DNA from: a virus
Length of the DNA stretch: 64,000 nucleotides
Virus record (IMG/VR): IMGVR_UViG_3300044615_001997
Strand: one strand, 5' to 3'
In this document: positions 13,566 through 52,000 of the stretch, in pieces
Layout: each line of letters starts with the position of its first letter
Position numbering within the stretch: position 1 is the first letter of the stretch
Made by a program: the position numbers and the translations under genes
The notes under the pieces: generated by a model
Told to the model about the DNA's origin: nothing
The model's database searches: none
The model's input: only the letters and a program-made list of their open reading frames with translations

Positions 13566-15035
13566 ATGCATATAGAAATAACCAGGTTTGATGGTGGGTT
13601 GAGGTTTAAGCCTTTTCCTCCGTATTTAACAAAATATTTAAAATATCACCATCGAGAAATGCAAACCATACAATACAAACGCGAATGTGTGTTTGTGGAA
13701 AAACTTCTCTATTCTGTAGATGCTTCTGGGTATGCATTCACTCTTCCTGGATTTTTTAAATCTGTAGTTGAATTAATACATAAGCATCATGACACGTATA
13801 ATGTAGATGATTTGAGAACAGTTCTTCCTCCTACAGACTGGGACAGAATTAAAAAGTTTAAATTAAGGGATTATCAAATCCCGTTAGTGGCTGAACTCAT
13901 ACTTAAAGGTGAAAACGATAGTGGGGTTATTAATGCTGCTGGCGGTATCGGCAAAACTCATTTAGCTGCCGTTACGTATGCCGCATGGAATAACTTAAAC
14001 ACCATACTAGCCATACCTCTAAAAGAAGTGGTTCGACAGACTTATCAAAAGTTTAAGACTTTTTTTCCTGAAAAACATGTTGGAATAATGGGGGATGGAA
14101 TGAATGATCTCAGTAACGACATAACTATAACTACGTTCAAAAGTCTAAAAAATTGTGCATTGGAAAAATGTGAATTGTTGTTGGTGGATGAGATGCAGTC
14201 TGCTGGTAGTCCTACCTTTAGAAATTGCATGAATCTAATGAAACCTGTACGTATGTTCGGGTTCAGCGCAACAACGGACGGCTTATTTAACAATACCGAT
14301 AAGTTATTAATAGGTCTTTTTGGTGAAGATTTAATTTATTTTCCTTATACAGAAGCTGAAGATGTGGCTGCAGTTGTTCCAGGAGTTGTCTACATGATTA
14401 AAATGCCTGAAAATTACTACATGTCTGATTACTCGAGTATAGAAAACAAAATTAAACACGGCATCAAAAAATGTGATGCTAGACATGAAATAATAGGTGA
14501 AGTCTGCAAAAACGTACCTGCAGATTGGCAAACTATTATATTTGTCGATCACGTTAAAGATCATTTAGTGCCGCTATATAAATATCTTCCCACAGGGACA
14601 AAATATTTGCATAGGGAATCTAGTAAAAAAGCTGTAGGCTCTTTTGCGCTCACTAATAAAGAACAGAAAACTACCGCAGAAAGTTTTTCCAACAACGAAT
14701 TTCAATTCTTGGTAGCTACAGACGCTTTCAGAGCGGGTGTAGATATACCTAATTGCAGAGTTGTTATACAGGCTTCTGGAGGATCTTCTAAAGTTGAAGT
14801 ACTTCAGGAGGCGCTACGTGGAAGCCGTATTCTTCCTGAAGAACAGCGAGCTAAATTTGATTTAACAGAAAAAACACACTTCATACTGATTGATATGATG
14901 GATAACCATGACGATGTATTAAACGGAATGGCTAAAAAAAGAATTCAGTATTATAAAGAGCAGGGCTGGACAGTCAATATCATAGACTCCATTAAAGATA
15001 TTGATTGGTTACAGATTAACACAAAATCGATTTGA
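13566..15035 (+). CDS. superfamily 2 helicase (UvsW/XPB-like)
   Basis: LRDYQ, AAGGIGKT, DEMQ, SAT, GVDIP, QEALRGSR. Confidence 0.88.
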   Translation: MHIEITRFDGGLRFKPFPPYLTKYLKYHHREMQTIQYKRECVFVEKLLYSVDASGYAFTLPGFFKSVVELIHKHHDTYNVDDLRTVLPPTDWDRIKKFKLRDYQIPLVAELILKGENDSGVINAAGGIGKTHLAAVTYAAWNNLNTILAIPLKEVVRQTYQKFKTFFPEKHVGIMGDGMNDLSNDITITTFKSLKNCALEKCELLLVDEMQSAGSPTFRNCMNLMKPVRMFGFSATTDGLFNNTDKLLIGLFGEDLIYFPYTEAEDVAAVVPGVVYMIKMPENYYMSDYSSIENKIKHGIKKCDARHEIIGEVCKNVPADWQTIIFVDHVKDHLVPLYKYLPTGTKYLHRESSKKAVGSFALTNKEQKTTAESFSNNEFQFLVATDAFRAGVDIPNCRVVIQASGGSSKVEVLQEALRGSRILPEEQRAKFDLTEKTHFILIDMMDNHDDVLNGMAKKRIQYYKEQGWTVNIIDSIKDIDWLQINTKSI

Positions 15036-15195: not shown

Positions 15196-16122
15196 ATGGC
15201 TAATGCCGCAATTTTAAAATTACTAAAAAATAAGTTTGGTAAAGCCAAAGGGGTTTCAGGTGGGAATTACCGTGTAAAATGTCCCACCTGCGAATCTAAA
15301 AACAGCGGCAAAATGAAACGCTATATTTCACCGGCGTGGCCTATGAGCAATTGCTTTATTTGTGAAAAGCTTTTAAAAGTAAGCGATCTTTTAACTACTG
15401 AAAGTTTTGCCTTTGTTGCTAATTATGACGTTGGTTCCGAGGAGATAGATGAATACCCTAAAGCAAAAATTTATCCTTTTGAAAAGGTAAACTTTTTGCA
15501 TGCTATGTCGGAAAACGAGCCAGTGATTCAATTCATGAAAAAAGATCATCTGACTGACTTTGCCTACTACTCTTCATTAGGTATAGCCTATATTCCTATT
15601 GATGGTGGAATGAATTTAGAGTTTGACTCTGGCTATAAAATTAACACAGCGGACAGCCTGTTTTTCCCTGTACGCCATAATGGCAGGTATGTCGGTTGGC
15701 AATTACGTTTCATTCCAGGAACAATCAATGGCGATCGTTTGCAGTATATGCGCTATCTCCACATGTTCCCGAAAGGAAATTTTTTGTACAACTACGACAA
15801 CGCTAAAAAACATGACAACGTTATTGTGGTTGAGGGAGTTAAGAAAGCTTTAAAGCTGCCAAATTCCGTAGCAACCTTTGGAAAAGGTATTTCTTCCGCA
15901 CAAAAACAGTTGATTCAAGAATGGAAGCGTATTACATTGATTCTCGACGGAGAAAACCAAACTCAGGAATTAGCACAAGAACTAACCGCCGAGTTTAAAT
16001 ACAATGGTAGGCAGGTAGTGAACGTCGATCTCAGAGATTATGGTTTAACTTCTCCCGACGAAGCCACAACAGGACAACTAAACGAAATAGTCACCAAGTT
16101 ATGGACACCGCTAACTCAGTAG
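15196..16122 (+). CDS. DnaG-like DNA primase
   Basis: CPTC...CFIC zinc finger, FPV....VGWQ.R, TOPRIM VVEG..A.FG..LD..D. Confidence 0.85.
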   Translation: MANAAILKLLKNKFGKAKGVSGGNYRVKCPTCESKNSGKMKRYISPAWPMSNCFICEKLLKVSDLLTTESFAFVANYDVGSEEIDEYPKAKIYPFEKVNFLHAMSENEPVIQFMKKDHLTDFAYYSSLGIAYIPIDGGMNLEFDSGYKINTADSLFFPVRHNGRYVGWQLRFIPGTINGDRLQYMRYLHMFPKGNFLYNYDNAKKHDNVIVVEGVKKALKLPNSVATFGKGISSAQKQLIQEWKRITLILDGENQTQELAQELTAEFKYNGRQVVNVDLRDYGLTSPDEATTGQLNEIVTKLWTPLTQ

Positions 16123-16646
16123 AATTAGAGCAAATTAAAGCACGCTTAGAAGAAAATTATTCTTATATCAGAAGCGTCATTCAACCAGGTTATGAATATC
16201 ACCCTTCACCAAAATTTGATAAAGCTTTTATTAAAGCAAGCAAGTTTTGCAAAGACAACAATTTGTCACCGGAAGAATATGCCTATGGTTTGATGTATAG
16301 TTTGGAACTCGGAAGAAAAGAATGCTTTTATCCTTCCTACTTTGGGTCTGCCACAGCCAATCAAGCTGTGCTCCAATACAAGAAAGAAAAAGCTATTGCT
16401 TACGAAGACTTACTAGAACATCAAAAAGACTTATTGTATATACAGATCAATAAGTTGGGGCGTGATTACAAAGCTGTTCTAATGGATCCCAGGTTAAAAT
16501 TCCATGCCTGGTTCAGGATATTGGCTACTGCCAACCCCGAACCAGACATTATCAACAAGTATAGCGATACAGCCAGAGCTGAAATGACGCCTGAATTGTT
16601 GGCTTTTTTGAAACAAAACAACCTAGATCTAGATAGAATATTATGA
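16101..16646 (+). CDS. hypothetical protein between primase and helicase
   Basis: 181-aa coupled ORF. Confidence 0.7.
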   Translation: MDTANSVELEQIKARLEENYSYIRSVIQPGYEYHPSPKFDKAFIKASKFCKDNNLSPEEYAYGLMYSLELGRKECFYPSYFGSATANQAVLQYKKEKAIAYEDLLEHQKDLLYIQINKLGRDYKAVLMDPRLKFHAWFRILATANPEPDIINKYSDTARAEMTPELLAFLKQNNLDLDRIL

Positions 16647-18043
16647 ATAAAAACTTATACGAAGATTCCGATTTCATTGAATTAGTCATTAAGCATATTG
16701 TTAGAGATAACAATATCTACAATTTGGCTAAAGCTTATGACTTCGGTATGGATGATGTTGGAAGTATAGATATATACAGGGCGTTCATCAAAATTGTTTT
16801 TGATGTAGGTGAAGTGCCTATCAGCATTAACTTGTTCCTGCTAAAGATCAAGGAGGCTTACTTACACGGACTACTAAATCAAACACAGGAAAATCAAATA
16901 CTCCAATTTCTTTACTGGATCTATGATGAACAACCACTCGATTCAAAATATATCGAGGAGCATATTCCTAAAATGCTGAAGCATAGAAGAATGGGAGCCA
17001 TCTTAAACTCAAAGGAAAAAGATTTCGACAAGATTGCACAAAATCTCAGTTCGTTGGCTTTTCAATTTGAGTCGGCTAAAGATTCTGAAGACGACACAGT
17101 GTTTTACCCATTCCTGAACCCAGTGTTCAAAACAAAGCAAGAAGCCTATGGAACAGGATTTATGGAAATTGACGCAGTGGCAGCAGGCCTAACACGTCAG
17201 GAATTTGGCTTGATTATTGGATATTCTGGTTCGGGTAAAACTGCTGTGGCGGTACATTCAGCACTACAAAACGCACTCAACGGAGTTAAAGTGCTCTATA
17301 TATCTCTTGAGGAGTCTTCTCCCAATATCTCAAATCGTCTCTATGCAAATTATTTTAATATAAATTATAGCGACCTTCACCACGTTAGAAACGGTGCCAA
17401 TGCCGAACTGCAGAGCAAAATTTCAGAAATGAAACCTGAAGAGCTTGATGTTCTGAAAAATATCAGAATTGCCCCACTAAAAGACAAGGCTCCTGTTACT
17501 GTGAGGTTTATAAAAGATTATCTAGACAACCTATATAAAACCGAAGGTTATGCGCCTGAGCTAGTATATATAGATCAGATGGATTATCTCGAACCTTCTG
17601 AAGATTGTGATGCTTCATGGGAAAAATACTCCAAAGTTGCTTTCGAGGTAGACGATTTATCTAACCACCTCATTGGTGGGGAGAAGCCCTTCTCGTTATG
17701 GTTACTTCATCAAGCCTCTGGAAAAATGAAACGTTACTTCACCAATGCCGACATTTCGGGGTTTAAAGGAATTATTAAACCGGCTGACTTTGTTTTGGGT
17801 ATTGGTAAAGATAAACCTGAAGATGAGACTGTTTCGCTGTTCTCCTTAAAATGCCGACATTCTAAAAATTTCACTTTTGATTACTTTGCTGACTTGGCCC
17901 ATATGCGTTTTGGAGCCATGAATAAGGGAGGCGAAGCAAGAATCAAAAAAGAAAAAGAAATGTTGGGGAAATCTACGAGACGCTCACACTTCAATACACC
18001 TAAACAACAAACATTACCATCACCCGACGGTGCTTTTGATTAA
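16643..18043 (+). CDS. dnaB: DnaB-like replicative helicase
   Basis: TGF.EID, GYSGSGKT, YISLEE, YIDQMD, LHQ, KCRH. Confidence 0.9.
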   Translation: MNKNLYEDSDFIELVIKHIVRDNNIYNLAKAYDFGMDDVGSIDIYRAFIKIVFDVGEVPISINLFLLKIKEAYLHGLLNQTQENQILQFLYWIYDEQPLDSKYIEEHIPKMLKHRRMGAILNSKEKDFDKIAQNLSSLAFQFESAKDSEDDTVFYPFLNPVFKTKQEAYGTGFMEIDAVAAGLTRQEFGLIIGYSGSGKTAVAVHSALQNALNGVKVLYISLEESSPNISNRLYANYFNINYSDLHHVRNGANAELQSKISEMKPEELDVLKNIRIAPLKDKAPVTVRFIKDYLDNLYKTEGYAPELVYIDQMDYLEPSEDCDASWEKYSKVAFEVDDLSNHLIGGEKPFSLWLLHQASGKMKRYFTNADISGFKGIIKPADFVLGIGKDKPEDETVSLFSLKCRHSKNFTFDYFADLAHMRFGAMNKGGEARIKKEKEMLGKSTRRSHFNTPKQQTLPSPDGAFD

Positions 18044-18594
18044 TGCTATTTACTGACGACATACATTACTGTGCTAGCTACGTTCCAGAAAATTTTGAGT
18101 TTGTTGTTTTGGGTACCACCCAAATACTCAGAGATATTCCAGAGCTAGCTTATCCTGTGGTAAAAGAAACTATCATTGGAGATAATAAATTCATATCACG
18201 TAGTTATGATGACGTTTATTTAATACCCATAGCCTCTAGGTTGGAATACACCAAAGAGGCTATGGAAATCCCCCTAGAACTTAAATATGACGAATACAAG
18301 AAGCTCAAAGAGATAGATTTAAAAGATTTTAAATTAGACGATGAGACTGAAACGTTATTAGTAAGATACCCGCTTTCATTCACTCCGGACGTTGATAAAG
18401 AAATAAAGCTTAAACTGCACGAAGGCAAGTTATATAAACGAATTAAATTATCCGAAGATGGAACTATAATGAGCGATGATTGGGAATTAATACATCCCAA
18501 CCACCCATTCATAAACTCATTCATGAATGACATGGTGGAGGATATATTAAAAGAATTATCGCTCGGAGAACCACAAGACGAAAATGAATACTAA
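18043..18594 (+). CDS. hypothetical acidic protein
   Basis: 183-aa coupled ORF. Confidence 0.65.
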   Translation: MLFTDDIHYCASYVPENFEFVVLGTTQILRDIPELAYPVVKETIIGDNKFISRSYDDVYLIPIASRLEYTKEAMEIPLELKYDEYKKLKEIDLKDFKLDDETETLLVRYPLSFTPDVDKEIKLKLHEGKLYKRIKLSEDGTIMSDDWELIHPNHPFINSFMNDMVEDILKELSLGEPQDENEY

Positions 18595-19018
18595 AGAACA
18601 AACATTTACAATTAAACAATTTGACACCTGCTCGAAGAGCTTTCCTACCGTTAAATTTGAAATGCCTGAATCTTCATCATTAGATGATGTCATCGAAGCA
18701 TTTGAAGCATTCTTAATAGGTGTGACTTTCGAGCTGCCTAAAGGAGCCAGGCTAGGATTGGTATACGATGAGGAAACAGAAAGACAGAAGTTGGAAGAAA
18801 AATATGGTAAAGACGAAGATAAAATTGACTCTGGAAAAGAATATCAAACATTAGCAGGAACTACACCTGATGGTGGAGGTTGGTCGATTTCTCATCCTGT
18901 GTGGTCGGAGTCTTTTACTTATCCAACAACTCAAACACTCACCACTTCTACTCCAATAACACCAGCACCGGCAAAGACCGCTAAAAAAAAGAAGAGTAAA
19001 AAGAAGAAAAATAAATGA
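18584..19018 (+). CDS. hypothetical protein with Thr/Pro linker and Lys-rich tail
   Basis: 144-aa coupled ORF. Confidence 0.65.
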   Translation: MNTKEQTFTIKQFDTCSKSFPTVKFEMPESSSLDDVIEAFEAFLIGVTFELPKGARLGLVYDEETERQKLEEKYGKDEDKIDSGKEYQTLAGTTPDGGGWSISHPVWSESFTYPTTQTLTTSTPITPAPAKTAKKKKSKKKKNK

Positions 19019-22000
19019 AAGCTAAATTAGCTATAGGACGTCGACTCACGGCGAGTGAAGATATTTTAAAATGCGAGATAGCTGAACTTCGCCATGAAAC
19101 TGCAAAAAAACTTGGTTTGAAGGATCAGCATGGTCTGACTGGTTCAGATGAGTCTAGACTCGAGAAACATAAAGTTGGTGTTGGTGGAGAAATAGCTGCA
19201 GCTGCTTGTTTAAAAATTGAAAATTTTATTCCTGGCGAAGGAGGGTTCAAGAGAATTCCAGATATAAATCTTGTTTGGCGTGACGGTAAGTATGTTTATG
19301 ACCCAAAACAAGACCACGGAGGTTTAGAAATCGAAGTCAGGACTTCTACCACACACGACGGAGCTCTTATTATAAGAGATAGCGATAGGAAATATGGAAC
19401 TTCTAGACCCTTTATTCTCGAGACTTTTGAAAATGGTCAATATGTTATGCGGGGTTGGATTCCAGAAGGAAGGTTAGCTTTTCAAGATAAATATTATACA
19501 GACAACAACAATAATCGTACTAAGGCATATTTTATGCCTCAAGAAGATTTATACCCCCTTGAATCGTTATATGAATTAGTAGGAATAAACGTTGAGGATG
19601 TATTATCTACACCAGGTATAACAACCGGAGATACTGAAATAAAAGAAAAAGTACGTGTAGCTCCTCGTGGTAAGCGTGGAGCAAAGTACATGCTTATCTA
19701 TTCGCATCCCGGCAAGGACGATCTGCAATCTAAGATGTTTGGTTATGCTGGTTACGCTGCCGAAGAAACTATCGCAGCGTTAAAGTCTGTGGGAATTGAC
19801 CCACAAGAATGTTATTTCACTGGAATGGTTAAGGAGGGTATTGGTAACAAGCCCAAGCCCACAGCAGAGCAAATTGAAAAATGGGCGGCTGAACTTGACC
19901 AGGAGATAGAGATAATTAAACCTAAAATAATCATCAGCTTGGGTGCCGAAGTATTTAAGCGGGTGATGAAAACAAATATCAAGGTAGGAGACTACATTGG
20001 AGAAATTATAGATTCTCCGTATGGAAAGCTTCTAGCTAATTATTCTCCTGCTATGGTGGTTGTTCAAGACCCAACCAAACGACCCGAATTCCAAGATATA
20101 TTTGAATTGGCTAAAAAAGCCGTAGAGAATAACTTGGAATACGACAAATATACTTACAAGGTAATTTCAGATCCTGCTGAAAATATAGCGGTATTGCAGA
20201 GTTACATCGACAGAGGTATGTTTAGTATTGGTTATGACGCTGAGTGGTTCGGGGCTAAATTCACCGATGATGAGGTGATGTACGAATTTCAATATAGCTG
20301 CGAAAAAGACGTAGCCATTATATTGAATATATCTCCTGATGGTAAAACAGAAAATCGTGAGCTGCTCAACACAATGAAGCTCATACTGGAGCATCCCAAA
20401 GCTGATAGGCTAGGATGGAACATCAGGGCTGATGACATTAGACTGGTTTATCGTGGGTTTAATCTCGCAGATGAAACTTTGGGGTTTGATGGAATGAAAG
20501 CTGTGGCTTTCTATGACTCTAGACTCGGTAAGGGATTAGAAACTGGGATTAAAAAATTTACAAATTATCCACCATATTATGTCCCATTTAATCGCAAGAT
20601 GAAGGAGCATAAGCTGGCTAAAAATGAATTGGCAAAACTCAAGTTTTTTGAACCCGATGTTTATTATAATTATTGTGCTGGTGACGCCGTGGCTCATCGT
20701 GAAGCATGTTTAAATATGCGTGACGGGTTTCCACAGGAAGTCTGGCCATATTATAAAAACGTATACTTACCATTGACTAATTACTTCTTGGATATGGAGC
20801 TTACCGGTATTCCAATAGATATGGATGTGTTGGAAGATATCACTGGAAAGTATATGTCTAAGTATGAAGAAATTAAGCTGGAGTTGGGGAATTTTCTAGA
20901 ACAGAGCTATGGAATAAAGGAATTTAATCCTAACTCAGCTCTACAGAAAAAAGAGTTCTTGTTTAAAACTTTAGGGTTGAATCCTGCTTATTATACAAAA
21001 GCAGGTAAATCACCTAAGTCTAGGACATGGTGGGAGAGACAAAAGCCACAAACTCAAAAGTTATTCTCTCCTTCCACCAACGGTAAATCTCTATCCACAA
21101 TTAAATTTGAATTGGAGGAAGAGATGGCTAAAAACAATTCCCAAGATCTAAAAAACGCACATCAGGCAATTAGTTTATTGTTAAACTTGAACAGAGTTAG
21201 TGTTTTTGCCAATAAGTTCTTGTCCAAGAAAGGTATAGTTGTGACTGAGGATGATGACGATGAACCACTGAAACAGAGTTATTGGGCGGCTATTTCTAAG
21301 GATGGGAGAATACATCCCAGCTTTTTTGAGTTGCTTAAAAACTTCAGATCTTCGAGTTCACCAAACGTACAGAATCCAGCTTCCAAGGTGTTGACTTACA
21401 TTCCGGATATTTTTATCCCGGGATATAACAAACTAACTAAGGAGGAGCAATCACAACATGACTCCAAACTACCGGCAAACTTACGCAATATATTCTATCC
21501 AGGACATAAAGATTTTAACTGGGTAGAGTTGGACATTGCTGGTGCTGACCTGGCTATTATGGCCTTCTTGAGTCAAGATCCTAACTTTATTGGTGACATT
21601 CGAGCAGGAAACTTCCACCAGACTAAAATGAGGGAATACTTCCAGGATGAAACATTGAGCAAAAAGGACACGGCAAAGTATGTTATATCGAAAGGTATTA
21701 CTTTCCGAGTATCGTATACTGCAGGTCTTGATTTTGCTGCGATACCTATTCAGGCAGACATCTATGCTGAAAATGGACTACACGTTCCATTGCAGCTAAT
21801 TGAGTTTGCGTTGGAAACTTGGAAGCGTTATGAAACCTATATGCGCTATAGACAGCTCTGCAACCTTGAAGTACAAGAAAATAAAAGTATAACTTGTGCC
21901 AGAGGAATGCGACTCAACTTTGAAGAAACAGATAATTTTGGAATTCTTGCCGGATGGATGAATGAAAGTTTAGCCTTTCCGGTAGCCTCAGAATTAGCTC

Positions 22001-22308
22001 TCTTCATGTGGGAAGCGTCTGTTAATGTAAGAAACTTGTTGAAACGCGAAGGCTTATGGATGCGCTGGATTTACCCTGTGAATGTGGTGCATGATGCCAA
22101 TTACTGGATAGCTCACAAAGACTTGCTCAAGGGCAATTATCTTCCTGAGCTACTGAGAACAGTGTTTTGTAAAAGCACAAAAATTGCCACCGGCGATAAC
22201 TTAGGCTGTGAATTAGTCGTGAGTGATCGTTGGAAAGGCAAAGAAAAAATATTCGAAAAAGAAACCGTTTGGAATAACGAACTTAATGAATGGGTTTGGA
22301 GTTCTTAA
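19015..22308 (+). CDS. polA: family A DNA polymerase with N-terminal PD-(D/E)XK-like and UDG-like domains and 3'-5' exonuclease
   Basis: ExoI YDAE, ExoII WNIRADD, ExoIII YCAGD; DGRIHP, PNVQN, motif A DIAGADLAIMAFLSQD, motif B KGITFRVSY, motif C VHDA. Confidence 0.88.
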   Translation: MKAKLAIGRRLTASEDILKCEIAELRHETAKKLGLKDQHGLTGSDESRLEKHKVGVGGEIAAAACLKIENFIPGEGGFKRIPDINLVWRDGKYVYDPKQDHGGLEIEVRTSTTHDGALIIRDSDRKYGTSRPFILETFENGQYVMRGWIPEGRLAFQDKYYTDNNNNRTKAYFMPQEDLYPLESLYELVGINVEDVLSTPGITTGDTEIKEKVRVAPRGKRGAKYMLIYSHPGKDDLQSKMFGYAGYAAEETIAALKSVGIDPQECYFTGMVKEGIGNKPKPTAEQIEKWAAELDQEIEIIKPKIIISLGAEVFKRVMKTNIKVGDYIGEIIDSPYGKLLANYSPAMVVVQDPTKRPEFQDIFELAKKAVENNLEYDKYTYKVISDPAENIAVLQSYIDRGMFSIGYDAEWFGAKFTDDEVMYEFQYSCEKDVAIILNISPDGKTENRELLNTMKLILEHPKADRLGWNIRADDIRLVYRGFNLADETLGFDGMKAVAFYDSRLGKGLETGIKKFTNYPPYYVPFNRKMKEHKLAKNELAKLKFFEPDVYYNYCAGDAVAHREACLNMRDGFPQEVWPYYKNVYLPLTNYFLDMELTGIPIDMDVLEDITGKYMSKYEEIKLELGNFLEQSYGIKEFNPNSALQKKEFLFKTLGLNPAYYTKAGKSPKSRTWWERQKPQTQKLFSPSTNGKSLSTIKFELEEEMAKNNSQDLKNAHQAISLLLNLNRVSVFANKFLSKKGIVVTEDDDDEPLKQSYWAAISKDGRIHPSFFELLKNFRSSSSPNVQNPASKVLTYIPDIFIPGYNKLTKEEQSQHDSKLPANLRNIFYPGHKDFNWVELDIAGADLAIMAFLSQDPNFIGDIRAGNFHQTKMREYFQDETLSKKDTAKYVISKGITFRVSYTAGLDFAAIPIQADIYAENGLHVPLQLIEFALETWKRYETYMRYRQLCNLEVQENKSITCARGMRLNFEETDNFGILAGWMNESLAFPVASELALFMWEASVNVRNLLKREGLWMRWIYPVNVVHDANYWIAHKDLLKGNYLPELLRTVFCKSTKIATGDNLGCELVVSDRWKGKEKIFEKETVWNNELNEWVWSS

Positions 22309-22587
22309 ATGTATAAAAAACACACACTATACACCTTTCAAAGCAACGAACCATGTCCACACTGTAATTCGACAAAAATTTTGAGCTTTGAAATCGAAGA
22401 AAACTTAAAAGAAATACATGTTGCTCGTTGCCAAGATTGCGGTATCGAAGATGTTGCGATATATGATCTCAGTAACGAGTACATGTACACAGACTATGGT
22501 GACACATACCACGAACCTGGCTATACCAGGGTTAAACAAATTAAGCGGCCTAGAAAGCTTGAATCTGTCCGACAACAGGAAGACTAA
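22309..22587 (+). CDS. zinc-ribbon protein
   Basis: CPHC...CQDC. Confidence 0.6.
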   Translation: MYKKHTLYTFQSNEPCPHCNSTKILSFEIEENLKEIHVARCQDCGIEDVAIYDLSNEYMYTDYGDTYHEPGYTRVKQIKRPRKLESVRQQED

Positions 22588-23296
22588 GTTTTTCTCCGGT
22601 CATAAAAACACATTTGGACTGCGGACAGGTTTACCTAAATATGGTGGAACCTGTCCCAGTGCAACCTTTGGCGAAGGCGGATGTCTATGTGGTAGGGGAG
22701 CTAAAGGCGAACCTACTTGCTATGCTGCCAAGCTGCGTAGAATATACCCTAATTATGGTAAAACCGAAGACTATAATACGGATCTACTTCTAAACGCCTC
22801 GTACGAGGATATGGTGGTCATTATTAGAAATACTGTTATGAAATGGCTCCTTAATGGTGGTCATAAAAAGCAGTACTTCCGCCTACATATGGGTGGAGAT
22901 TTCTTTAATGAAACCTATACTCGTGCCTGGAAGCATGTCATTGACGAATGGCCCCTGGTTAAGTTTTGGACTTACACCAGATCCATGTTCGCTCTACCTA
23001 TTTTGGCAGATTGTAAAAACCTGTCATTATATCTGAGCTGCGATCCTGCCAATGCCGAAGAAGTTCGTAAGGCCTACGAACCATATAAAAGCTACAGTAA
23101 TGTAGCCGTTGCTTGGATGGGGAATAGCTTTCCTGAAGCTGTTCTCAACGACAGGAAATATTTAAAATGTCCTGAAGTAGCCAAGAAGCTAAAAAGTACT
23201 AAAGTCGAAGGTGCATGCTCTAGGTGTAGAGCGTGCATTGACAGACCGTTGAAAGATGGTAAATTGAGGCATATTCAATTTCCTATCCATAAATGA
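22418..23296 (+). CDS. Gp88-like Cys-rich protein (true start probably 22493-22559)
   Basis: TCP.A....C....CYA.K, FRLH..GDF, W.YTR, LS.D, CP...CSRCRAC. Confidence 0.7.
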   Translation: MLLVAKIAVSKMLRYMISVTSTCTQTMVTHTTNLAIPGLNKLSGLESLNLSDNRKTKFFSGHKNTFGLRTGLPKYGGTCPSATFGEGGCLCGRGAKGEPTCYAAKLRRIYPNYGKTEDYNTDLLLNASYEDMVVIIRNTVMKWLLNGGHKKQYFRLHMGGDFFNETYTRAWKHVIDEWPLVKFWTYTRSMFALPILADCKNLSLYLSCDPANAEEVRKAYEPYKSYSNVAVAWMGNSFPEAVLNDRKYLKCPEVAKKLKSTKVEGACSRCRACIDRPLKDGKLRHIQFPIHK

Positions 23297-43053: not shown

Positions 43054-46000
43054 TCAATTAACTTTTATATTTATAAACGCCGAAGCATCGAAACGATTGT
43101 TTTCACAATAAACACAAACTCTGTATGTTCCTGGGGCAGAAATTGTTCCTGAAATTTTTCCTGTGGTGGCATCAATACTTAGCCCAGCTGGAATGTTTAA
43201 TATATACCACCCGGTAGGTACACCGACATAGGTGGGAGTAAACTCAAAAGGAGTACCAGCAGCGACTATTACAGTTTGTTCAGGATTAATTTTAAGTAAA
43301 CTTGTAATGGCTGCCACAATTATCTTTATTTTTTCACTACTAGCGCCATAACTGTTTTCAACTTTTATCTCACAATCTACCCCACCAGCAGAGGTAGCTT
43401 GCGTAGGTGTTCCGCTTATTGTGCCTCTTAAAGTATTTAAAGTTAGCCCTTGAGGCAGTGGAGTCAACGCTGCCCATTGTGTGGGAGGAGTTCCTCCAGC
43501 AGATGAAAAAGCTATACTGTATGTTATAAAATTAGCTGTTGATAAATTTATAACTTGATTGGGGGTGATAACGGGTACTTTAGACAATATATTAATTTTT
43601 ATACTAGCGCTTCCAGAAATACCGCTTACGCCCGTAGCAGTAACTACGCCTGTATATTCTCCCGCTATTCCAGGAGTTCCTGAGATTACGCCGGTATTAG
43701 ATATAGTTAATTGAAGAGAGGTAGGAAGATTTGTTAATTGCCATGAAATTGGATTTCCTTGTGTACGTACTGTAGCTGTAAACGGATCTAAAGCATAGCC
43801 ATTAAAGCTTTGTCCGGGGCTTACAACTATAGCTGGCTCATCTACCGCTACAGTGATATTTTCTTCGTCACTTCCGTCTTGATTCCCTGCAAAAATACGA
43901 ATGGTTCTACTACCGCTATATACTGTAGGAGTACCAGATAGCGCACCAGTAGAACCATTTAATATTAAGCCTGCAGGTAATTCACCAGACACTATCCTCC
44001 ACTCCGTCACATTTCCAGAAAATGTTATATTTCTAGAAAATGGTGAATTTAATGTAGCTCTGAATATTTGTCCTTGCGCAATATTAGGAGCATTAACACT
44101 TTCTGTAATTTGAAAATTAATTGTTGCAGGTGCGCTATCGCCAGCAGAATTTGAGGCTATTAATTGTGCAGATGTATTTCCTGCGGTTGTTGGAATCCCA
44201 GACAAGTAACCATTTCGTCCGTCTAGCGTTATCCCGGGATGTAGTAAGGTTTGTGCTGTGGCTAATCTCCAATTTATAGGTGTACCGCCGCTATTTAAAA
44301 ATCCTATAGTGTAATTGAAATTAACTCCCTTTCTTCCGATAAATGTTTGATTTGGTGTTATAACCGGAATCAAGGTTGAGCTGGCTACGATAATAGTTAT
44401 TTCAGCAGTATCACTACCTGACTCATTTTCTACTCTAATTATTGTTGTGAATGTTCCTGTGGCTGAGGGAATTCCAGATATGGTTCCTACTATCGCACTT
44501 AGCGAAGTCCCAGAAGGTAGAGAATTGTTCGGAATATTATCAACTAACCAATTTGTGATAGTACCTGTGGCTTCGAGTTGAAAGCTAAAGTGAGCTCCTC
44601 TGAACGCATTTATAGTTTGATTATTTATAACAGGCGGAATAACGGAAGACACAACATTTATGGCTAAAGTTGTAGTAGCACTTCCGGCAGAATTACTAGC
44701 TGTAACTGTAACAGTTTTATTTTCTACTGCAGAAGGTCTTCCGGAAATTGTTCCTGAGTTAAAATTAACAGACAGTCCTTGCGGTAAATTAGAGGCTGCC
44801 CACGCTGTAGCTATTCCTCCAGAATTTACAAAGTTATAAGGAGTCATGTTGACGTTTCTAATCAATTGTATCGGGCTGAGATTTTGTTCTAATACTGGTA
44901 ATTGCGTGGTTGGTGAAGTCACTGTGATGGAAACAGTTTCAGTATCTGTACCTGCCGAATTTCTTGCAGTTATTATAGCATTAAATACTCCTGCTGTTAG
45001 AGGTCTTCCTTGAAGTCTGCCTGTATTTCCGTCCATACTAACACCGCTTGGCAAATCTTGACTTGTTAGTGTAACCCCAGACCCAGTAAAAAGTATTGTT
45101 GCATTTGTTGTGATAGTTGTATTTAGTGTGAATGTAAAAGTTTGACCGGCCGTTATTTGTGGAATTGTGACAGGTTGAGTTATTATAAACTCCACAGCTC
45201 CGGTGCTACTACCTGCACTATTGGAAGCTGTTATATTACTTGATGTGGTTGTGGCGGCAGCATTTAAAGTTCCTGATATTTGACCTGTGGTTGTAGCGAT
45301 AGCTAATCCTTGAGGTAACCCCGTAGCTGTCCAGCTTGTAGCCGTTCCACCAGTTGTTTGGACGAAGAGGTTGCTTACTTGCTGCCCTGTCACTAAATTA
45401 AACTTTTGTCCTGAGGGTATTTCGGGTTTTATAACTCCCTGAGTAATCGTTATTGTGACATTGACTGTAGGGGAGCGCCCCTTACTGCTTTCGGCAAATA
45501 TACCGACAATAAAAGTACCTGCAGTTGTTGGTTTTCCTGTAAATCTACCTATAGATAACGAAAAAGTTAATCCTGGGGGTAGCTGTGTGGGTATAGGTAA
45601 ACCCCAAGTGATAGGTGTGCCTCCTGTAAAAGCTACCGTAAACTCAGCATCATTAGATGCAGTTCCTGTAAATGTTTGATTAGGTGTTATTACAGGTATT
45701 TCCGCCGATACAACTAAAGCCACGAATGCGCTAGAAGTATTTCCAAAGTTAGTTAAAGTTACTCTTATGTTATAATTACCTGCAGGAGGTGTGGTTCCTG
45801 ACAGTCTTGCTGGATTAAAAAATAGTTGTACTCCGGCTGGAGCAAACTCCAAAGTACCGCCGGTAGGTGTTCCACCGGTGGTGGCGATATTTCTACCAAA
45901 ACTACCGGTCCCCTCCGTTAAATCAAAAATTTGGTTAGGTGTTATTGTTATTGGCTCATCTTTAATTATAAATTTAACTGGCACATTTCCAGTAGAGCCA

Positions 46001-49000
46001 GATAAATTTGATGCGCTGACATTGTGGGATGTTTCTCCCGTTGTTGCTGGGGCTGTTCCTGTAAAAGTATAAGCTGCGGGATTAAAAACTATTCCCGAAG
46101 GTAAAGTTGAGAAAGATATGCTTGTTGGTGTCTCGCCTAAAACATTAAGTTTGTCGGTTCCTGGTAGTGTTGTACTTTTAACAAAAGAAAAAGATTGATT
46201 GTCTGGGATAATTGGTCTTCCATCAGATACAATTATTGTAATTGAAGACGTATCTGTCCCTGTACCATTCGAAGCTATTAAGTCAAAATTATATACTCCA
46301 CTAGTTGTGATTGTTCCAGATATAGTGAATCCGTTAGCGGATTGTACTACTGAAACTCCTTGAGGAAGATTCACACTAAATTCATAGTCATCTATTGCAC
46401 CACCAGCATTAATCAAATTAAATGTAAAAGGAGTATTTAAGTTAGCTCGAATTATAGCGTTGCTTAGGTTAGGTGCAGCTGTACCCCCACCACCACCATC
46501 ATCATCTGAAAATACATCTATAGTTATTTCACATTCGTTAGATACTATATTTTGTAGTCTAGCTAAAACATTAAAAGAAAAAGAACCGGTTACTAATGGA
46601 GTACCTACAATTTCGCCTAACGGAGTAATAGAAAATGGTCCTGCGTTACCACTACTAATTTCCCATGTAGCTGGAATTTCGCCTTCCAAAGGAATGTCGA
46701 CAGAAAACGGTAAATTGACTTCTGCGGTTAAATCTAGAAAACTGGGTATCTCTATAAAGTTTAACCCTACGTTTATGGTGTATGTCTTGGTGGTAGAAAA
46801 AGCGGGAACTATTTCATGCTCGGCAGTTATAATGACCGTATATACTCCATTGGGTACATTAGTGATACCTGTAATTAATCCACCGGAAATTGTTCCTGTG
46901 TTCATGTCCATTGTAACAGCTGTGGTCATACTTAATCCTGCAGGTAAAGGACTATTTAATACCCAACGTGTAGGAACATCTTGAGTATAAGTTAATTGAA
47001 CACTGGCGGACCTACCTCTAACAACATTAATTGTGATATCGGATAATTGTATTTTTCTAAATATTACTATCCAATTAGCTAAAGCAGAATACTCAAAATC
47101 TTCTCCAACTTGAGCCGTTAAATAAAATTGACCTTGTCCTTGTTCTGTAGCCAATCCTCTTATTATACCGGTAACAGGATCTTGAGTAATTCCAGTCGGC
47201 AATCTAAAGTTTCCTGAGTTTGCGGGAGGTACCCAACCAGTTAAAATGCTTGGATCGTTGACAGCTGCCATTAACCCAGGCATCCATCTACCCTGAGCTA
47301 CAAAAGATTGATTCGGAACGACATAAAAATCTTGAGTTCCTTCTACGACTGTAAACTCTTCCGACTTAGTCAAAACTATTCCGCTCGTGTTATATGCTGT
47401 AGCTGTAACATTATAGGTTCCTACTTGAGTAGGAGTACCTTGAATACTCGTATTGGTTGAATTAAAGACCAGTCCAGGTGGAAGATTTGCAAAAAGTAAA
47501 CTTGTAATATTTCCACTTATCGAGATAACTAGGGGAGTTATTGTTATAAATTTAGGAAAAACAGGATTTACCGGCATTGTAAAATCAATAGCATCTACTA
47601 TTGTGATACGGAAAGTTTGTTCTACATAACTAGAATAAACATAAACTCTAATTACGACTTGGTGGATACCGGAAGATTCTGCTACACCCAGTATAACTGG
47701 TTGATCGCCGCTGGGGTCATCCCAATAAAGTCCGCTGTCTTCCAATCCTGTCACTGAAATATCTGTCCAATTAAAATTACCAGAAATTAATATAGGTATA
47801 GGTGTTATGTCTGTACCTAAATTATAAGTTTTATTATCTATCTCTTCTACAGTTAAACCTAAAAGTATCTTAAAATAAAAACCATCACTAATGTAATCAT
47901 CACCGTTCCACAAACGGACGGTCACTCTGGCACCATAATAATCATTTTCAGTCATTTCTAAAAATGTTCCAGAGATTGTTCTTGTGGTTTCATTGTAAGT
48001 CAAGCCGTCCGGTAAATCAGCTAGATTTGGTATAGATACTTTTGTGCATGGGGTTGGTCCGGATGTTTCTAGAACAAGCGAAGACAAAGTAGTGCCTAAA
48101 AGATAAGTTAATGCAGAGTTGGTAACATCTAGTGTTATCTTGACTGTAACTGTTATGGTAAATGATACAGTTCTAACAAGTCCACTGAACGTAGTGACAG
48201 TTATTGTTACCGTTGTACCGTTCCATGGATTGACTTCTGTTGGTGTTCCTTCTATATATTGCCGATCTCCCTCATTAACTAAATCTAATCCTGGCGGTAA
48301 AGTATCAGCGGTTATTGTATCTACTTGTGTTGCTTCTCCGATATATCGGAACACTATAGGAGTCATGGGAGCACCTTTAGCTAAAGTCGTGTTTTGAGGT
48401 GTTATTACTTGGAAAAATTCTACGATTGTGAGACTGAATGTTTCTGATAACGCAATTCCTCCAGGCGCAGTAAAAGTTATGGTGGGATTGAAGTTACCAA
48501 AAACAGTAGAAGAACCTGATATTTGCCTAGTGCTTGCATTATATGTAAAAGTTCCTGCAGGGAAACCAGATAAACTCGCTGTTAGTGTTAAATTTAAATT
48601 AGTTAGCACCAGTGGTACAGCTATTGAAAATTGTTGATTTTGATTAGCTGTGACTGGTGAAATTTCACCTATTGAAAATCCTGGATCTACGAATAGTTCA
48701 AATGCCCTAGATATTTCTTGACCATCTAGGTCGACTGCCACTAGAGTAATTTCGAAATTGCCGGGAGCTGTAGGTGTGCCATATATTCTTAAAGATGTGG
48801 GATTTCCACATTCACCTGTAATACCTTCCCAATCCATCCCGTTGGGCAGGTCATAAGCATATAACTCTAATCCCCAATCGCAAACCTCTCCCTCCATATC
48901 TGCATAAATTTCTATAAACTCTCCTAAAGAATATTCGAAACTTCCTAATTGTGGAGCATCTATATTTAAAGTAAAATTTAAATTTAACTCTAATGTTCCA

Positions 49001-52000
49001 GAATTGCTTGTTGTTGGTGTTCCTTTTTGGGCTCCTCTGATATCTGGGTTAGACGTTTGTGTAATATAGTTATAATTTTTATACCCAATTCTTAATTGTG
49101 GGACGGTGCCTACAAAAGCGTTGTCGGCATGGCCAACTATTTTACCTGTGATATCGCCGGTTCTTATAAATCTAAAATCGTCGTAATATCGACCACTAGA
49201 ATCATGCCCAATTATATGGAGATGTGTAGTATTAGCTAAAATTACAGGAAAATTAAATAAATTTGCTTTGGGGTATGTCCTAACTATACTTGTTACGGCT
49301 GTTGGGCTTGCAGGAACGGATTGATTGCCTACCCATAACCCATCAGCTATTGCCGAAGGAGGAGGAGTGAAATTTGTTTGATATAACGACGTCCCTTTCG
49401 ATATAAAAAGATCTCTAACATAGCCCGAAAATGGAAATCCATCAAAAGCTCCTATAGTTAAATTTTTATTAGTTGCACCACTTAAATCAAGGTAATTTGA
49501 GTTATCGTTGACGTTTGCTACAATACCCGATCCACTAACTAAGATATTTCTCTGCTGACCATTTACGAAAGCCCTGAATATGCCATTAGTTCTAGTAAAA
49601 GCTATATGCACCCATTGATTTAGGGGCAGTGTATCTTGCACCTGAAGCTCTCCTAATAAATAACTTCCAAATTTAATAGTCCCAGGGTATCCTCCTAATT
49701 CGACCCCCCAGCCTTGTGTTAATTGGGCACTTAAAAATCTAGCATATGTAGCATATTGCGTAGCATATGCCCAAAATGAAACAGTGAAATTGTCGGTGCC
49801 AAAAGAAAGTATATTTTTTTGATTTGATAAAACCAAGTGTTTTACAAAGCCATTGTTAAAATGCACACCGTTCCAACCGCCTACAGTGCCAATAGCGAGA
49901 TTTGGTTGAGGATCGCTATAAAAAGGTGTGCTAGTTGTTTGAGTGAGAGACATTCCTCCAAAAGTAAAAGTAGATACTCCCACAGCTTCGTTAAATGGAA
50001 AATATATTGTATTTTGGGGTAGAGAGCCTCCGGTTCCACTAGAGCCGTCGATTAAAATAAAAGGATTAAAATAAGTAGTAATGCCTGTATACCCTGGAGG
50101 CGCATCAACTAGCTTAAAGTTAAATCTTGTTTTCTTAAAATCAGAAGTGTATGTTGAAATAGTTGTTATAGCTTGAGCTAAAACATCAGATTGTTGATAT
50201 TGTTGAGGAGAATCGCCATCCAGAGGGTCTACAACAAATCTCCAATTTTCATCAAATGGGTCTCCGGTTGGATAAAAATATCTAGTTATAGGTGCAGTAC
50301 TGAAAACTTCGTTTCTATTGTGTAATAAGAAGCTTCCTTTGAGGGGTCCGGCGAAAGCCGGAGTCAGCATATCGGCGGTGTATCCACTAGATTGTTGTGT
50401 TCCTGGTTTTGTCCAAATAGATTCACCTTTAGTAATTTGAATATCGCTTACCTTAGCTTTCAAATCATCACATACAGAGATATCTAGTGGTGCACTATAA
50501 ATACCACTCAAACTGCTATGCGTTAAATCGCCGGTGTATGGTTTTACGCCGTTTATATAAACGTTAAAATGCCCTGTAGAAGTTCTTGCAAAGGCTACAT
50601 GAGTCCATTTTTTATCAACATTTGACGTAAAATAAGGCTCATCAAATATAGTCACGCTAGCATTCCAGTCACCTACCACCCAACCTTGGTCGATCATTAC
50701 TCTGAGGGTTAGAGTTCCTGGATAATTTAACTTCAGTTCAATAGTGTAATGGTTAATAGTACCATCACCTTGGTCTACATGAAATAATTGTCCTCCCCAA
50801 GGACTAACAGAGCTATCGATATAAAACCAAGCTTCAAAGCTAAATGGTTGGTTATAAAAAATATCAGAAATATAGTATTCTCTGTTAGGTATATCTATTG
50901 AAGTATTTGAAGCAGTGCCATTTATGGTGAGCTTGTGCTGCTGAAGTAATAACCCCTTTTTAAATTTACCGGTTGTATGTACAGGGCTGTCTTGAGTTGA
51001 AGAAAAAACTATATTTTTTGGAAAAGCTGTGCTGTCATATATCAAAAATTTGTCACCATTAAAATTTTTATTTTTAAAATAATTGGCTGAAATGCTACTA
51101 ATTGTGTTTTTACCTCCAGGAATATATTTTAAAATTTGTGGACCTCTCTCATTTGTAAAAATAAAAACCTCGTAATCATTAATTGGTACTGGAGACAATC
51201 CACAAAATCCTTTTGTCGGTGTGTTTGGATATGCAGCATTAAAACTCGAATCAACCCCCGAGAGTGGAAGATCTCTCACGTGGGTTATCGGTAAAACACT
51301 GCTGGGATTAATGTATGTTCTACGCTGATAAATATTTGCTGTGCCTCTCACTATCTGTATTGTGATTACTGTGTCACTATTTAATCCCAGTATTGCGCCA
51401 CCTATAGGTGTGTTAACGGCACGCTGCGACTGCATTTTAGTCCAGCTAGCTCCGTTATTTAGAGATACAAAATAATTAAGTGTAGCTGTGGCAAAATTTT
51501 GAGGCCATGGAGCTATTTGAAACGCAAGCAATTCTTGTCCAAATGAAATCATTTGCGTAGGACTAATGACAGTATTATCTGACGCTTGAAATGCCAACAT
51601 ATGCCAGTCAGCAGTGCTCCAAATATTTGTAGTTCTTTTAGGAGTTCCGCCCTGATTATAAAAAATATAGTGCCCGTTATGATACACTACATCATAATAG
51701 GGTTGTTGTGCCTGGGGCGATGTAGTTCCTGATGGATAACTATGTATTTCAGTCCAGGTACTTCCATCGGTAGATGCGTGACAAACATAAGATCCTACAG
51801 GATAACTACCCGGACCTTTAAGTAAAAACCAAATATTATTTACAAACTTTATATTTTTAAATTCGTGTGGTTGAGAGTTTAAATTTGCAATTCTAGTCCA
51901 AGAATCTCCGTTATTTGTAGATATATAATTAAAACCTGGAACACTTGTAGTTAAAATCCACTTACCTTGACCAAAAGCTATGTTGTTTATAAAAGCTCCG

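Follow-up and report, generated by a model that had tools for sequence, protein, structure and literature searches.

Relation to Described UDG-PolA Replicases

[quoted passage not shown] Here we analyzed a polymerase of related architecture, P0001, encoded in a 64 kb window (the whole stretch of DNA that was read; IMG/VR record IMGVR_UViG_3300044615_001997) from an uncultured freshwater (lake) phage with a genome of ~190-200 kb. The gene was taken from the list of open reading frames (ORFs) and their translations.

19015..22308, plus strand: whole polymerase gene, 1097 amino acids (aa), with an extra N-terminal domain, a UDG-like domain, a 3'-5' exonuclease, and a family A polymerase

We read P0001, with a probability of roughly 0.6, as a functional, proofreading replicase that uses canonical deoxynucleoside triphosphates (dNTPs), and whose nascent-pair pocket and triphosphate clamp were reshaped through coupled substitutions within a deeply branching lineage of phages. 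Judged from its sequences, the clade to which P0001 belongs is most aptly regarded as a subfamily of the UDG-fused family A replicases, new and atypical, rather than as a non-member. Pocket residues are numbered below as in E. coli Pol I, and residues of P0001 are given in its own numbering.

N4 gp39 resembles P0001 in its degenerate UDG domain, its HDA motif C, and its role as a phage replicase encoded beside a helicase. The degenerate UDG domain of cluster #17 has been proposed as a possible processivity module (PMC10201439). P0001 shares this degenerate-UDG feature; by BLASTP it does not cluster with N4 gp39, to which it aligns in short segments only (E 2e-5), and N4-type phages were missing from the tblastn matches. 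Unlike P0001, N4 gp39 keeps SGR, E710, R712, D732/R754, R841, N845, and Q849.

The SPO1-like/SP15-like enzymes have an active UDG domain, the usual steric gate, and accompanying thymidine-modification genes, and the SP15-like members additionally carry large inserts and a C-terminal domain (PMC13697223). P0001 differs from them in its degenerate UDG domain and changed pocket. An SPO1-like polymerase was the closest cultured match to one member of the outgroup defined below. The best cultured-phage match to P0001 itself was T5 DNA polymerase, the aligned region (the exonuclease and the last part of the UDG-like domain) being 23% identical. T5 polymerase has likewise lost R712 (Tyr) and E883 (HDS) and is an efficient replicase, so that both changes are compatible with efficient replication. 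Unlike P0001, it keeps E710, R754, G763, R841, N845, and Q849.

The loss at motif 6 of P0001 is partly paralleled in phiVC8 DpoZ (cluster #18; L040:26432-28333), a natural family A replicase whose motifs B and 6 contain non-standard residues; it has Tyr at 841, Gly at 845, and HDS in motif C. In contrast to P0001, DpoZ retains the steric-gate Glu and Q849, position 762 is Leu, and position 766 (Y901 in P0001) is Phe, the alignment being uncertain near motif B, where DpoZ contains an insertion.

According to a 2023 reclassification, the TGR, A, B, 6, and C motifs carry strictly conserved catalytic residues in all 19 PolA clusters, and one cluster is the only one with Ala in place of Thr in TGR (PMC10201439). 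If, as appears to be the case, the conserved logo positions of that scheme cover TGR, the Glu of the steric gate, the Arg of motif B, and the Arg, Asn, and Gln of motif 6, the clade of P0001 departs from the 19-cluster pattern at TGR (NFR), A2 (Asp), B1 (Tyr), and all three motif 6 positions (N/A/A).

Active-Site Residue Equivalences

P0001 and its relatives were aligned by MAFFT L-INS-i with E. coli Pol I (NC_000913.3), T7 gp5, N4 gp39, T5 polymerase, an SPO1-like polymerase, and phiVC8 DpoZ. The span 21532-22098 starts exactly at D840, the Asp of motif A, and ends at A1028, the last residue of HDA. The alignment of motif A was free of gaps, and the register of motif 6 was fixed by a common Pro847. 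The motifs are located as follows.

21340..21348, plus strand: "TGR" motif, here NFR (N776, F777, R778), with the R668 equivalent kept
21532..21579, plus strand: motif A, with D840 (D705) kept, D845 at the steric-gate position E710, and A847 at R712
21610..21618, plus strand: N866-F-H868, with D732 lost and H734 kept
21676..21720, plus strand: motif B/O helix, with K888-Y889 (R754 to Tyr, Lys at 753), K893, F897, R898 (G763 to Arg), Y901, and T902 (G767 to Thr)
21961..21987, plus strand: motif 6, with N983 (R841), A987 (N845), and A991 (Q849)
22090..22098, plus strand: motif C, H1026-D1027-A1028

Pol I-type enzymes are classically held to select the sugar, bind the triphosphate, and check the base pair through residues such as the steric-gate Glu, Arg754, Gln849, and Asn845. 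In P0001, the equivalents of D705 (D840), R668 (R778), H734 (H868), K758 (K893), F762 (F897), Y766 (Y901), and H881/D882 (H1026/D1027) are kept. Conversely, E710 (D845), R712 (A847), R754 (Y889), G763 (R898), G767 (T902), R841 (N983), N845 (A987), Q849 (A991), and E883 (A1028) are altered. Two further changes were identified: the replacement of TGR by NFR, and the loss of D732, which lies beside H734 and is the covarying partner of R754.

The residue equivalences to E. coli Pol I listed in the initial annotation were all reproduced by the MAFFT alignments, by the register of a profile match to Klenow, and by an AlphaFold model. Its statement that the proofreading motifs are intact was also borne out, as D408, E410, D492, Y553, and D557 of the exonuclease are invariant in a 76-sequence alignment (A1).

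20236..20685, plus strand: 3'-5' exonuclease core, with Exo I D408/E410, Exo II D492, and Exo III Y553/D557

Family A Homology and Predicted Structure

P0001 matched the PHROG family phrog_17 ("DNA polymerase") over residues 218-1083 (E 2e-38). The Pfam model DNA_pol_A (PF00476) reached 32.4 bits over residues 760-902 only, below its gathering cut-off of 34.3, and the relatives of P0001 scored 24-27 bits. A profile built from the clade and outgroups matched Klenow with E 3e-89, in a register identical to that of the MAFFT alignments; the family A homology is therefore secure despite the sub-threshold PF00476 score.

The AlphaFold model, computed from the 76-sequence alignment, had a predicted template modeling score (pTM) of 0.79 and a predicted local distance difference test score (pLDDT) mostly above 90 over residues 210-1097. 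The motif A strand ends at D840, the O helix spans residues 886-900, the long Q helix residues 975-1011, and the motif C hairpin residues 1019-1034, all as expected for family A. The top Foldseek matches were Klenow (E 1e-27, target TM 0.80) and the Bst large fragment (target TM up to 0.84). The model thus has a Klenow-like fold, with a 3'-5' exonuclease domain followed by palm, fingers, and thumb.

Distribution of the Substitutions

A tblastn search of 50,697 phage records found cultured relatives at no more than 24% identity, mostly T5-like Vibrio phages, and no nucleotide matches. A word-indexed search returned 186 proteins, of which the best 120 are 50-100% identical to P0001 over the polymerase half; most are ~900 aa long. 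An exhaustive HMMER search added a handful of representatives at 39-53% identity, followed by a sharp fall to 29% or less. The clade polymerases occur on contigs of up to 190-235 kb in many metagenomes.

We compared 124 clade members with the 112 nearest other polymerases (the outgroup), with the following counts.

Position 710: clade D 122, E 2; outgroup E 111/111
Position 754: clade Y 123; outgroup R 103, Y 5
Position 763: clade R 123; outgroup G 96
Position 767: clade T 120; outgroup G 79, Q 14
Position 841: clade N 124; outgroup R 97
Position 845: clade A 122; outgroup N 98
Position 849: clade A 122; outgroup Q 95
Position 883: clade A 122; outgroup A 70, S 16, E 6 (98 outgroup sequences aligned here)
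Position 712: clade A 106; outgroup F 48, R 22

The first position of TGR is Asn in 124/124 clade members and Thr in 101/110 outgroup sequences. The equivalents of both catalytic Asp residues, K758, F762, Y766, H734, R668, and H881 are invariant in the 124 clade members. Among 37 positions conserved to at least 85% in the outgroup, the clade keeps 23; of the other 14, ~10 represent true polymerase-domain substitutions. The clade-specific changes are T666N/G667F, E710D, G763R, G767T, R841N, N845A, Q849A, and the loss of an Arg at 821, and the N4, T5, and SPO1-like polymerases are canonical at these positions.

These counts separate the parts of the earlier claim of a "systematically rewired active site". 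NFR, E710D, G763R, G767T, R841N, N845A, and Q849A are fixed in the clade and missing from its nearest relatives, and here the description is apt. In contrast, HDA (found in N4 gp39, with HDS in T5) and the loss of R712 (T5 and most outgroups) are ordinary, because they occur in well-studied replicases and most outgroups; under the standard that the initial annotation set for itself, the same substitutions in characterized ordinary polymerases, both drop out. The change of R754 to Tyr is recurrent in other lineages: all five outgroup sequences with Y754 lack D732 (Ser or Lys there), whereas the D732/R754 pair is present in 100 outgroup sequences. On these sequence counts, D732 and R754 are a covarying pair, and one that can be tested. 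A Lys or Arg at 753 is found in 119/124 clade members.

Public records label clade members as "uracil-DNA glycosylase family 4", "DNA polymerase", or "hypothetical protein". The member P0274 (RTL07782.1) is a hypothetical protein on a 226-kb contig in a Candidatus Dependentiae metagenome-assembled genome; the contig is probably of phage origin and was grouped with a bacterial genome during binning.

Phylogeny and Stepwise Origin

In a FastTree phylogeny of 220 sequences and 487 columns, the clade was monophyletic, contained no foreign member, and had a stem of 1.41 substitutions per site. Its sister group has canonical residues and is joined to it across a very long branch. The sister group (P0163, P0223, and P0239) has THR or TMR in place of TGR and is canonical elsewhere, so that loosening may have begun at the TGR Gly.

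Two basal members, P0123 and P0125, already have NFR or NYR, Y754, R763, and N841. Both keep E710, its partner at 849 being Ser and not Ala. Furthermore, N845 is kept in P0125, and D732 is kept in P0123. The crown group combines D710 with A849 and A845. P0123 and P0125 are intact genes on phage-like contigs, the latter lying immediately 3' of a DnaB-like helicase gene. Because these basal lineages carry intermediate residue sets, the rewiring was stepwise, and its intermediates survive in nature. The clade therefore offers a natural experiment on which residues an enzyme of this type cannot do without, with living intermediates (E710/S849, then D710/A849).

Proposed Remodeling of the Nascent Base-Pair Pocket

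In family A structures, the carboxylate of the steric-gate Glu forms hydrogen bonds with the equivalents of Y766, Q849, and R668, and at E615 of Taq mainly conservative substitutions are tolerated (PMC6158600). Given this bonding network, E710D and the replacement of Q849 by Ser or Ala affect both ends of one bond, beside the altered TGR motif. In Klenow, R841 contacts the single-stranded template and helps strand displacement, R668 and N845 take part in the recognition of matched pairs, and Q849 forms a hydrogen bond to the template side of the terminal pair (PMC10520511). The N845A mutant of Klenow has lowered fidelity, and Q849A and R754A change misinsertion (PMC10520511).

We propose that P0001 most likely still replicates standard DNA, using standard dNTPs and the two-metal mechanism, with proofreading, and that two interaction networks of the nascent base-pair pocket were swapped stepwise for a different, co-evolved set. 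In the sugar/minor-groove network, Glu710 forms hydrogen bonds with Gln849, Arg668, and Tyr766, with Asn845 and Arg841 on the template side; the crown group instead has Asp710, Ala849, Ala845, and Asn841, together with NFR in place of TGR and a new Arg at Gly763 on the O helix. In the triphosphate clamp, the Asp732-Arg754 pair has been lost, with Tyr now at 754 and Lys at 753.

Helix periodicity and published structures suggest where the two new basic residues might act. The O-helix residue one turn earlier on the same face (Q2384 of Pol theta) touches the incoming base (PMC11871136), and R898 (position 763) could lie over or contact the templating base. K888 might assume a phosphate contact. 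Accuracy would then derive less from hydrogen bonds in the template minor groove and more from the exonuclease. The predicted effects concern sugar discrimination, checking of the template minor groove, and perhaps strand displacement. An altered sugar or fidelity selection, as raised by the initial annotation, is thus a reasonable prediction from the substitutions. That annotation also named a relaxed sugar selection in Taq E615D; our literature search returned no E615D or E710D in a polymerase context, and the statement was neither confirmed nor rejected.

In this large clade of at least 124 sequence clusters, a connected set of textbook residues has been replaced, while purifying selection on the enzyme, the only replicase, stayed strong. 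It also provides a new scaffold for polymerase engineering, in which the same positions are mutated to accept modified nucleotides.

Nucleotide Metabolism Genes and Non-Canonical DNA

The pocket could instead serve a non-canonical chemistry, in which the phage incorporates a nucleotide altered in its sugar or substituted on the minor-groove side, or copies a template with ribonucleotides, uracil-rich DNA, or another modification, so that minor-groove checks were dropped and the gate was shortened. The pattern of the losses is suggestive: the clade-specific ones fall on the sugar gate (E710) and the template side (R841, N845, and Q849), whereas the residues of catalysis and of the primer side are retained. 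The 2-aminoadenine base carries an additional amino group in the minor groove, and phiVC8 DpoZ, which copies 2-aminoadenine DNA, likewise lacks R841 and N845 in our alignment.

We examined the gene content of relatives G001-G010, which are 65-75% identical. No member of the ThyA family (PF00303; dUMP/dCMP hydroxymethylase or methylase) was found in five relatives, four of them 93-100% complete; this also sets them apart from the SPO1-like/SP15-like phages, in which the ThyA-type gene belongs to the 5-hydroxymethyl-dUMP pathway. PurZ (PF00709), DpdA/TGT, and dUTPase were not found in the relatives searched. DpoZ, in contrast, is accompanied by PurZ and a dATPase. For HD hydrolase, nothing exceeded the threshold in the relatives, and MazG was present in 2/10. 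The suggestion in the initial annotation of an adaptation to non-canonical nucleotides thus receives no support from gene content: the ThyA family, PurZ, and DpdA were not found in the relatives searched, and ribonucleotide reductase (RNR) is present.

RNR, whose large subunit was detected in 5 to 7 of the 10 relatives, speaks for 2'-deoxy substrates. A dCMP deaminase was found in 7/10, mostly near the RNR gene (e.g., G003:C1:101247-101558 and G001:C1:12183-12494), and the window itself contains a weak homologue at 436-846 (E 1.4e-4, below the cut-off). A Pfam sweep of the complete relative G003, covering ~0-135 kb and excluding the last 70 kb (probably virion genes), proteins >1500 aa, ORFs <75 aa, and the polymerase, identified a T4-type dNMP kinase, UvdE, DNA and RNA ligases, and PNKP. 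A dCMP deaminase and a dNMP kinase in relatives where dUTPase was not found, and thymidylate synthase mostly not, would suit uracil-rich DNA. However, ThyX is present in one of the five relatives, a complete one, which argues against clade-wide uracil DNA, and the choice between U and T requires no change in the polymerase. The pyrimidine supply of the relatives may run via the host thymidylate synthase or be unusual.

The several glycosyltransferases and the methyltransferase of G003 could likewise be taken as modification genes. Between ~37 and 135 kb, this genome contains three group-1 glycosyltransferase matches, one family-2 glycosyltransferase, a polysaccharide pyruvyl transferase, and a Methyltransf_24 protein, together with three proteins containing collagen repeats, a cobalamin adenosyltransferase, and an ATP-grasp protein. 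Because this genome also encodes the collagen-repeat proteins and the pyruvyl transferase, the glycosyltransferases better fit glycan or protein glycosylation, and the set suggests phage-encoded glycan synthesis or protein glycosylation.

By analogy, the polymerases of YerA41 and phiLo, which copy heavily modified thymidine DNA, are described as having the usual steric gate and minor-groove contacts, the modifications lying in the major groove (PMC13697223); the rewired pocket is therefore not the known signature of base-modified genomes. Additionally, the basal intermediates show a gradual change. Overall, we consider a non-canonical chemistry unlikely. The narrower proposal that the crown group relaxed sugar and minor-groove checking for a sugar-modified or ribonucleotide backbone, for uracil-rich DNA made via dCMP deaminase and dNMP kinase, or for a minor-groove base modification appears distinctly unlikely. 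If unusual DNA chemistry were nevertheless present, this would be a new kind of phage genome, with a natural polymerase for non-standard nucleic acid.

Several points weigh against a canonical-dNTP replicase. Mutations of Q849 and E710 in Klenow impair substrate binding or catalysis (PMC10520511), and normal activity in P0001 would therefore require compensation. The concentration of the losses at the sugar gate and the template/minor-groove side is what an altered substrate or template chemistry would predict. The gene contents above are those of the relatives rather than of the window's own genome, and such searches detect known modification pathways only. The dCMP deaminase and dNMP kinase without a dUTPase, with ThyX in 1/5, are compatible with an unusual pyrimidine metabolism.

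Genomic Context and Probable Replicase Role

The polymerase gene follows a set of replication genes, assigned by Pfam and PHROG matches, and precedes a GP88-family gene.

13566-15035, plus strand: SF2 helicase
15196-16122, plus strand: primase
16101-16646, plus strand: ORF of unassigned function
16643-18043, plus strand: DnaB-like helicase
22418..23296, plus strand: GP88-family gene (PF17338, phrog_1392; Pfam GP88 E 3e-30), directly 3' of the polymerase

The order SF2 helicase, primase, ORF, DnaB-like helicase, polymerase is kept in 20-21 of 21 related IMG/VR loci, and the GP88-family gene lies 3' of the polymerase in 19/21, so that its product could be a conserved accessory factor. Searches for PolB, Pol III alpha, Prim-Pol, and Y-family polymerases found no second polymerase in five relatives (four 93-100% complete, one with terminal repeats), in which PolA matches were confined to a single gene. 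The pairwise ratio of non-synonymous to synonymous substitution rates (dN/dS) among relatives was 0.03-0.05 for both the whole gene and the motif A-C stretch, with dS saturated for the more distant pairs.

These observations bear on the possibility that P0001 is a low-fidelity or lesion-tolerant polymerase like Pol theta or Pol nu, acting in repair, recombination-dependent synthesis, or diversification while the host replisome carries out bulk replication. Error-prone family A enzymes have hydrophilic O-helix residues that touch the nascent pair (Q2384 in Pol theta, K679 in Pol nu; PMC11871136), and G763R would add an Arg to that face of the O helix, one turn beyond them. The lowered fidelity of Klenow N845A (PMC10520511) is also in line with such a role. 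However, the 3'-5' exonuclease is intact and invariant, the gene follows those for the primase and the DnaB-like helicase in almost every related locus, and other polymerases were not found in the complete relatives. It is also unlikely that a phage encoding helicases, a primase, a ligase, and RNR would borrow the host replicase. We regard a low-fidelity role as improbable.

That the polymerase domain is catalytically dead or has taken on another task, such as that of a DNA-binding scaffold, with its substitutions representing decay, is hardly credible: the DNA_pol_A score falls short of its cut-off and residues are gone whose Klenow mutants impair substrate binding or catalysis (PMC10520511), but the catalytic Asp residues and the other core residues listed above are invariant, the substituted positions are themselves nearly invariant, unlike decay, motif A-C dN/dS is 0.03-0.04, and this is the only polymerase found in complete genomes. 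Sole-polymerase status, a replisome operon, and low dN/dS together make a dead or repurposed enzyme very unlikely, and the "repurposed enzyme" of the initial annotation is contradicted by the same evidence of strong purifying selection and context.

N-Terminal and UDG-Like Domains

The N-terminal part of P0001 consists of two further domains.

19015..19629, plus strand: N-terminal domain, ~205 aa, in-frame fusion, matching phrog_18407 (unannotated) over residues 11-188 (E 1.7e-13)
19669..20094, plus strand: family-4 UDG-like domain, residues 219-360 (Pfam UDG E 6e-10), with degenerate catalytic motifs

When aligned with solved family-4 UDGs, the UDG-like domain has YSHPG in place of GE(A/G)PG, YSPA in place of HPA, and a Glu at the Fe-S Cys position. 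The N-terminal domain gave no match in a tblastn search of 21 related loci, in which the polymerases lack this domain, and no relative in a sequence search of solved structures. Its pLDDT in the AlphaFold model was below 50, the input alignment containing no homologues of the domain. At its junction with the polymerase, both a stop codon and an ATG are absent.

A stretch of ~1.6 kb (18043-19629) separates the DnaB-like helicase from the polymerase proper, whereas in relatives the helicase almost abuts the polymerase. The small ORFs at 18043-18594 and 18584-19018, between helicase and polymerase, are present in just 1 and 3 of the 21 related loci, respectively. The stretch 18043-19629 looks like an inserted cassette whose last gene is now fused to the polymerase.

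Elsewhere in the window, the minus strand carries giant ORFs at 43054-57606 (4850 aa) and 59647-63924 (1425 aa), and G003 encodes comparable giant proteins of 3616, 2237, and 1773 aa.

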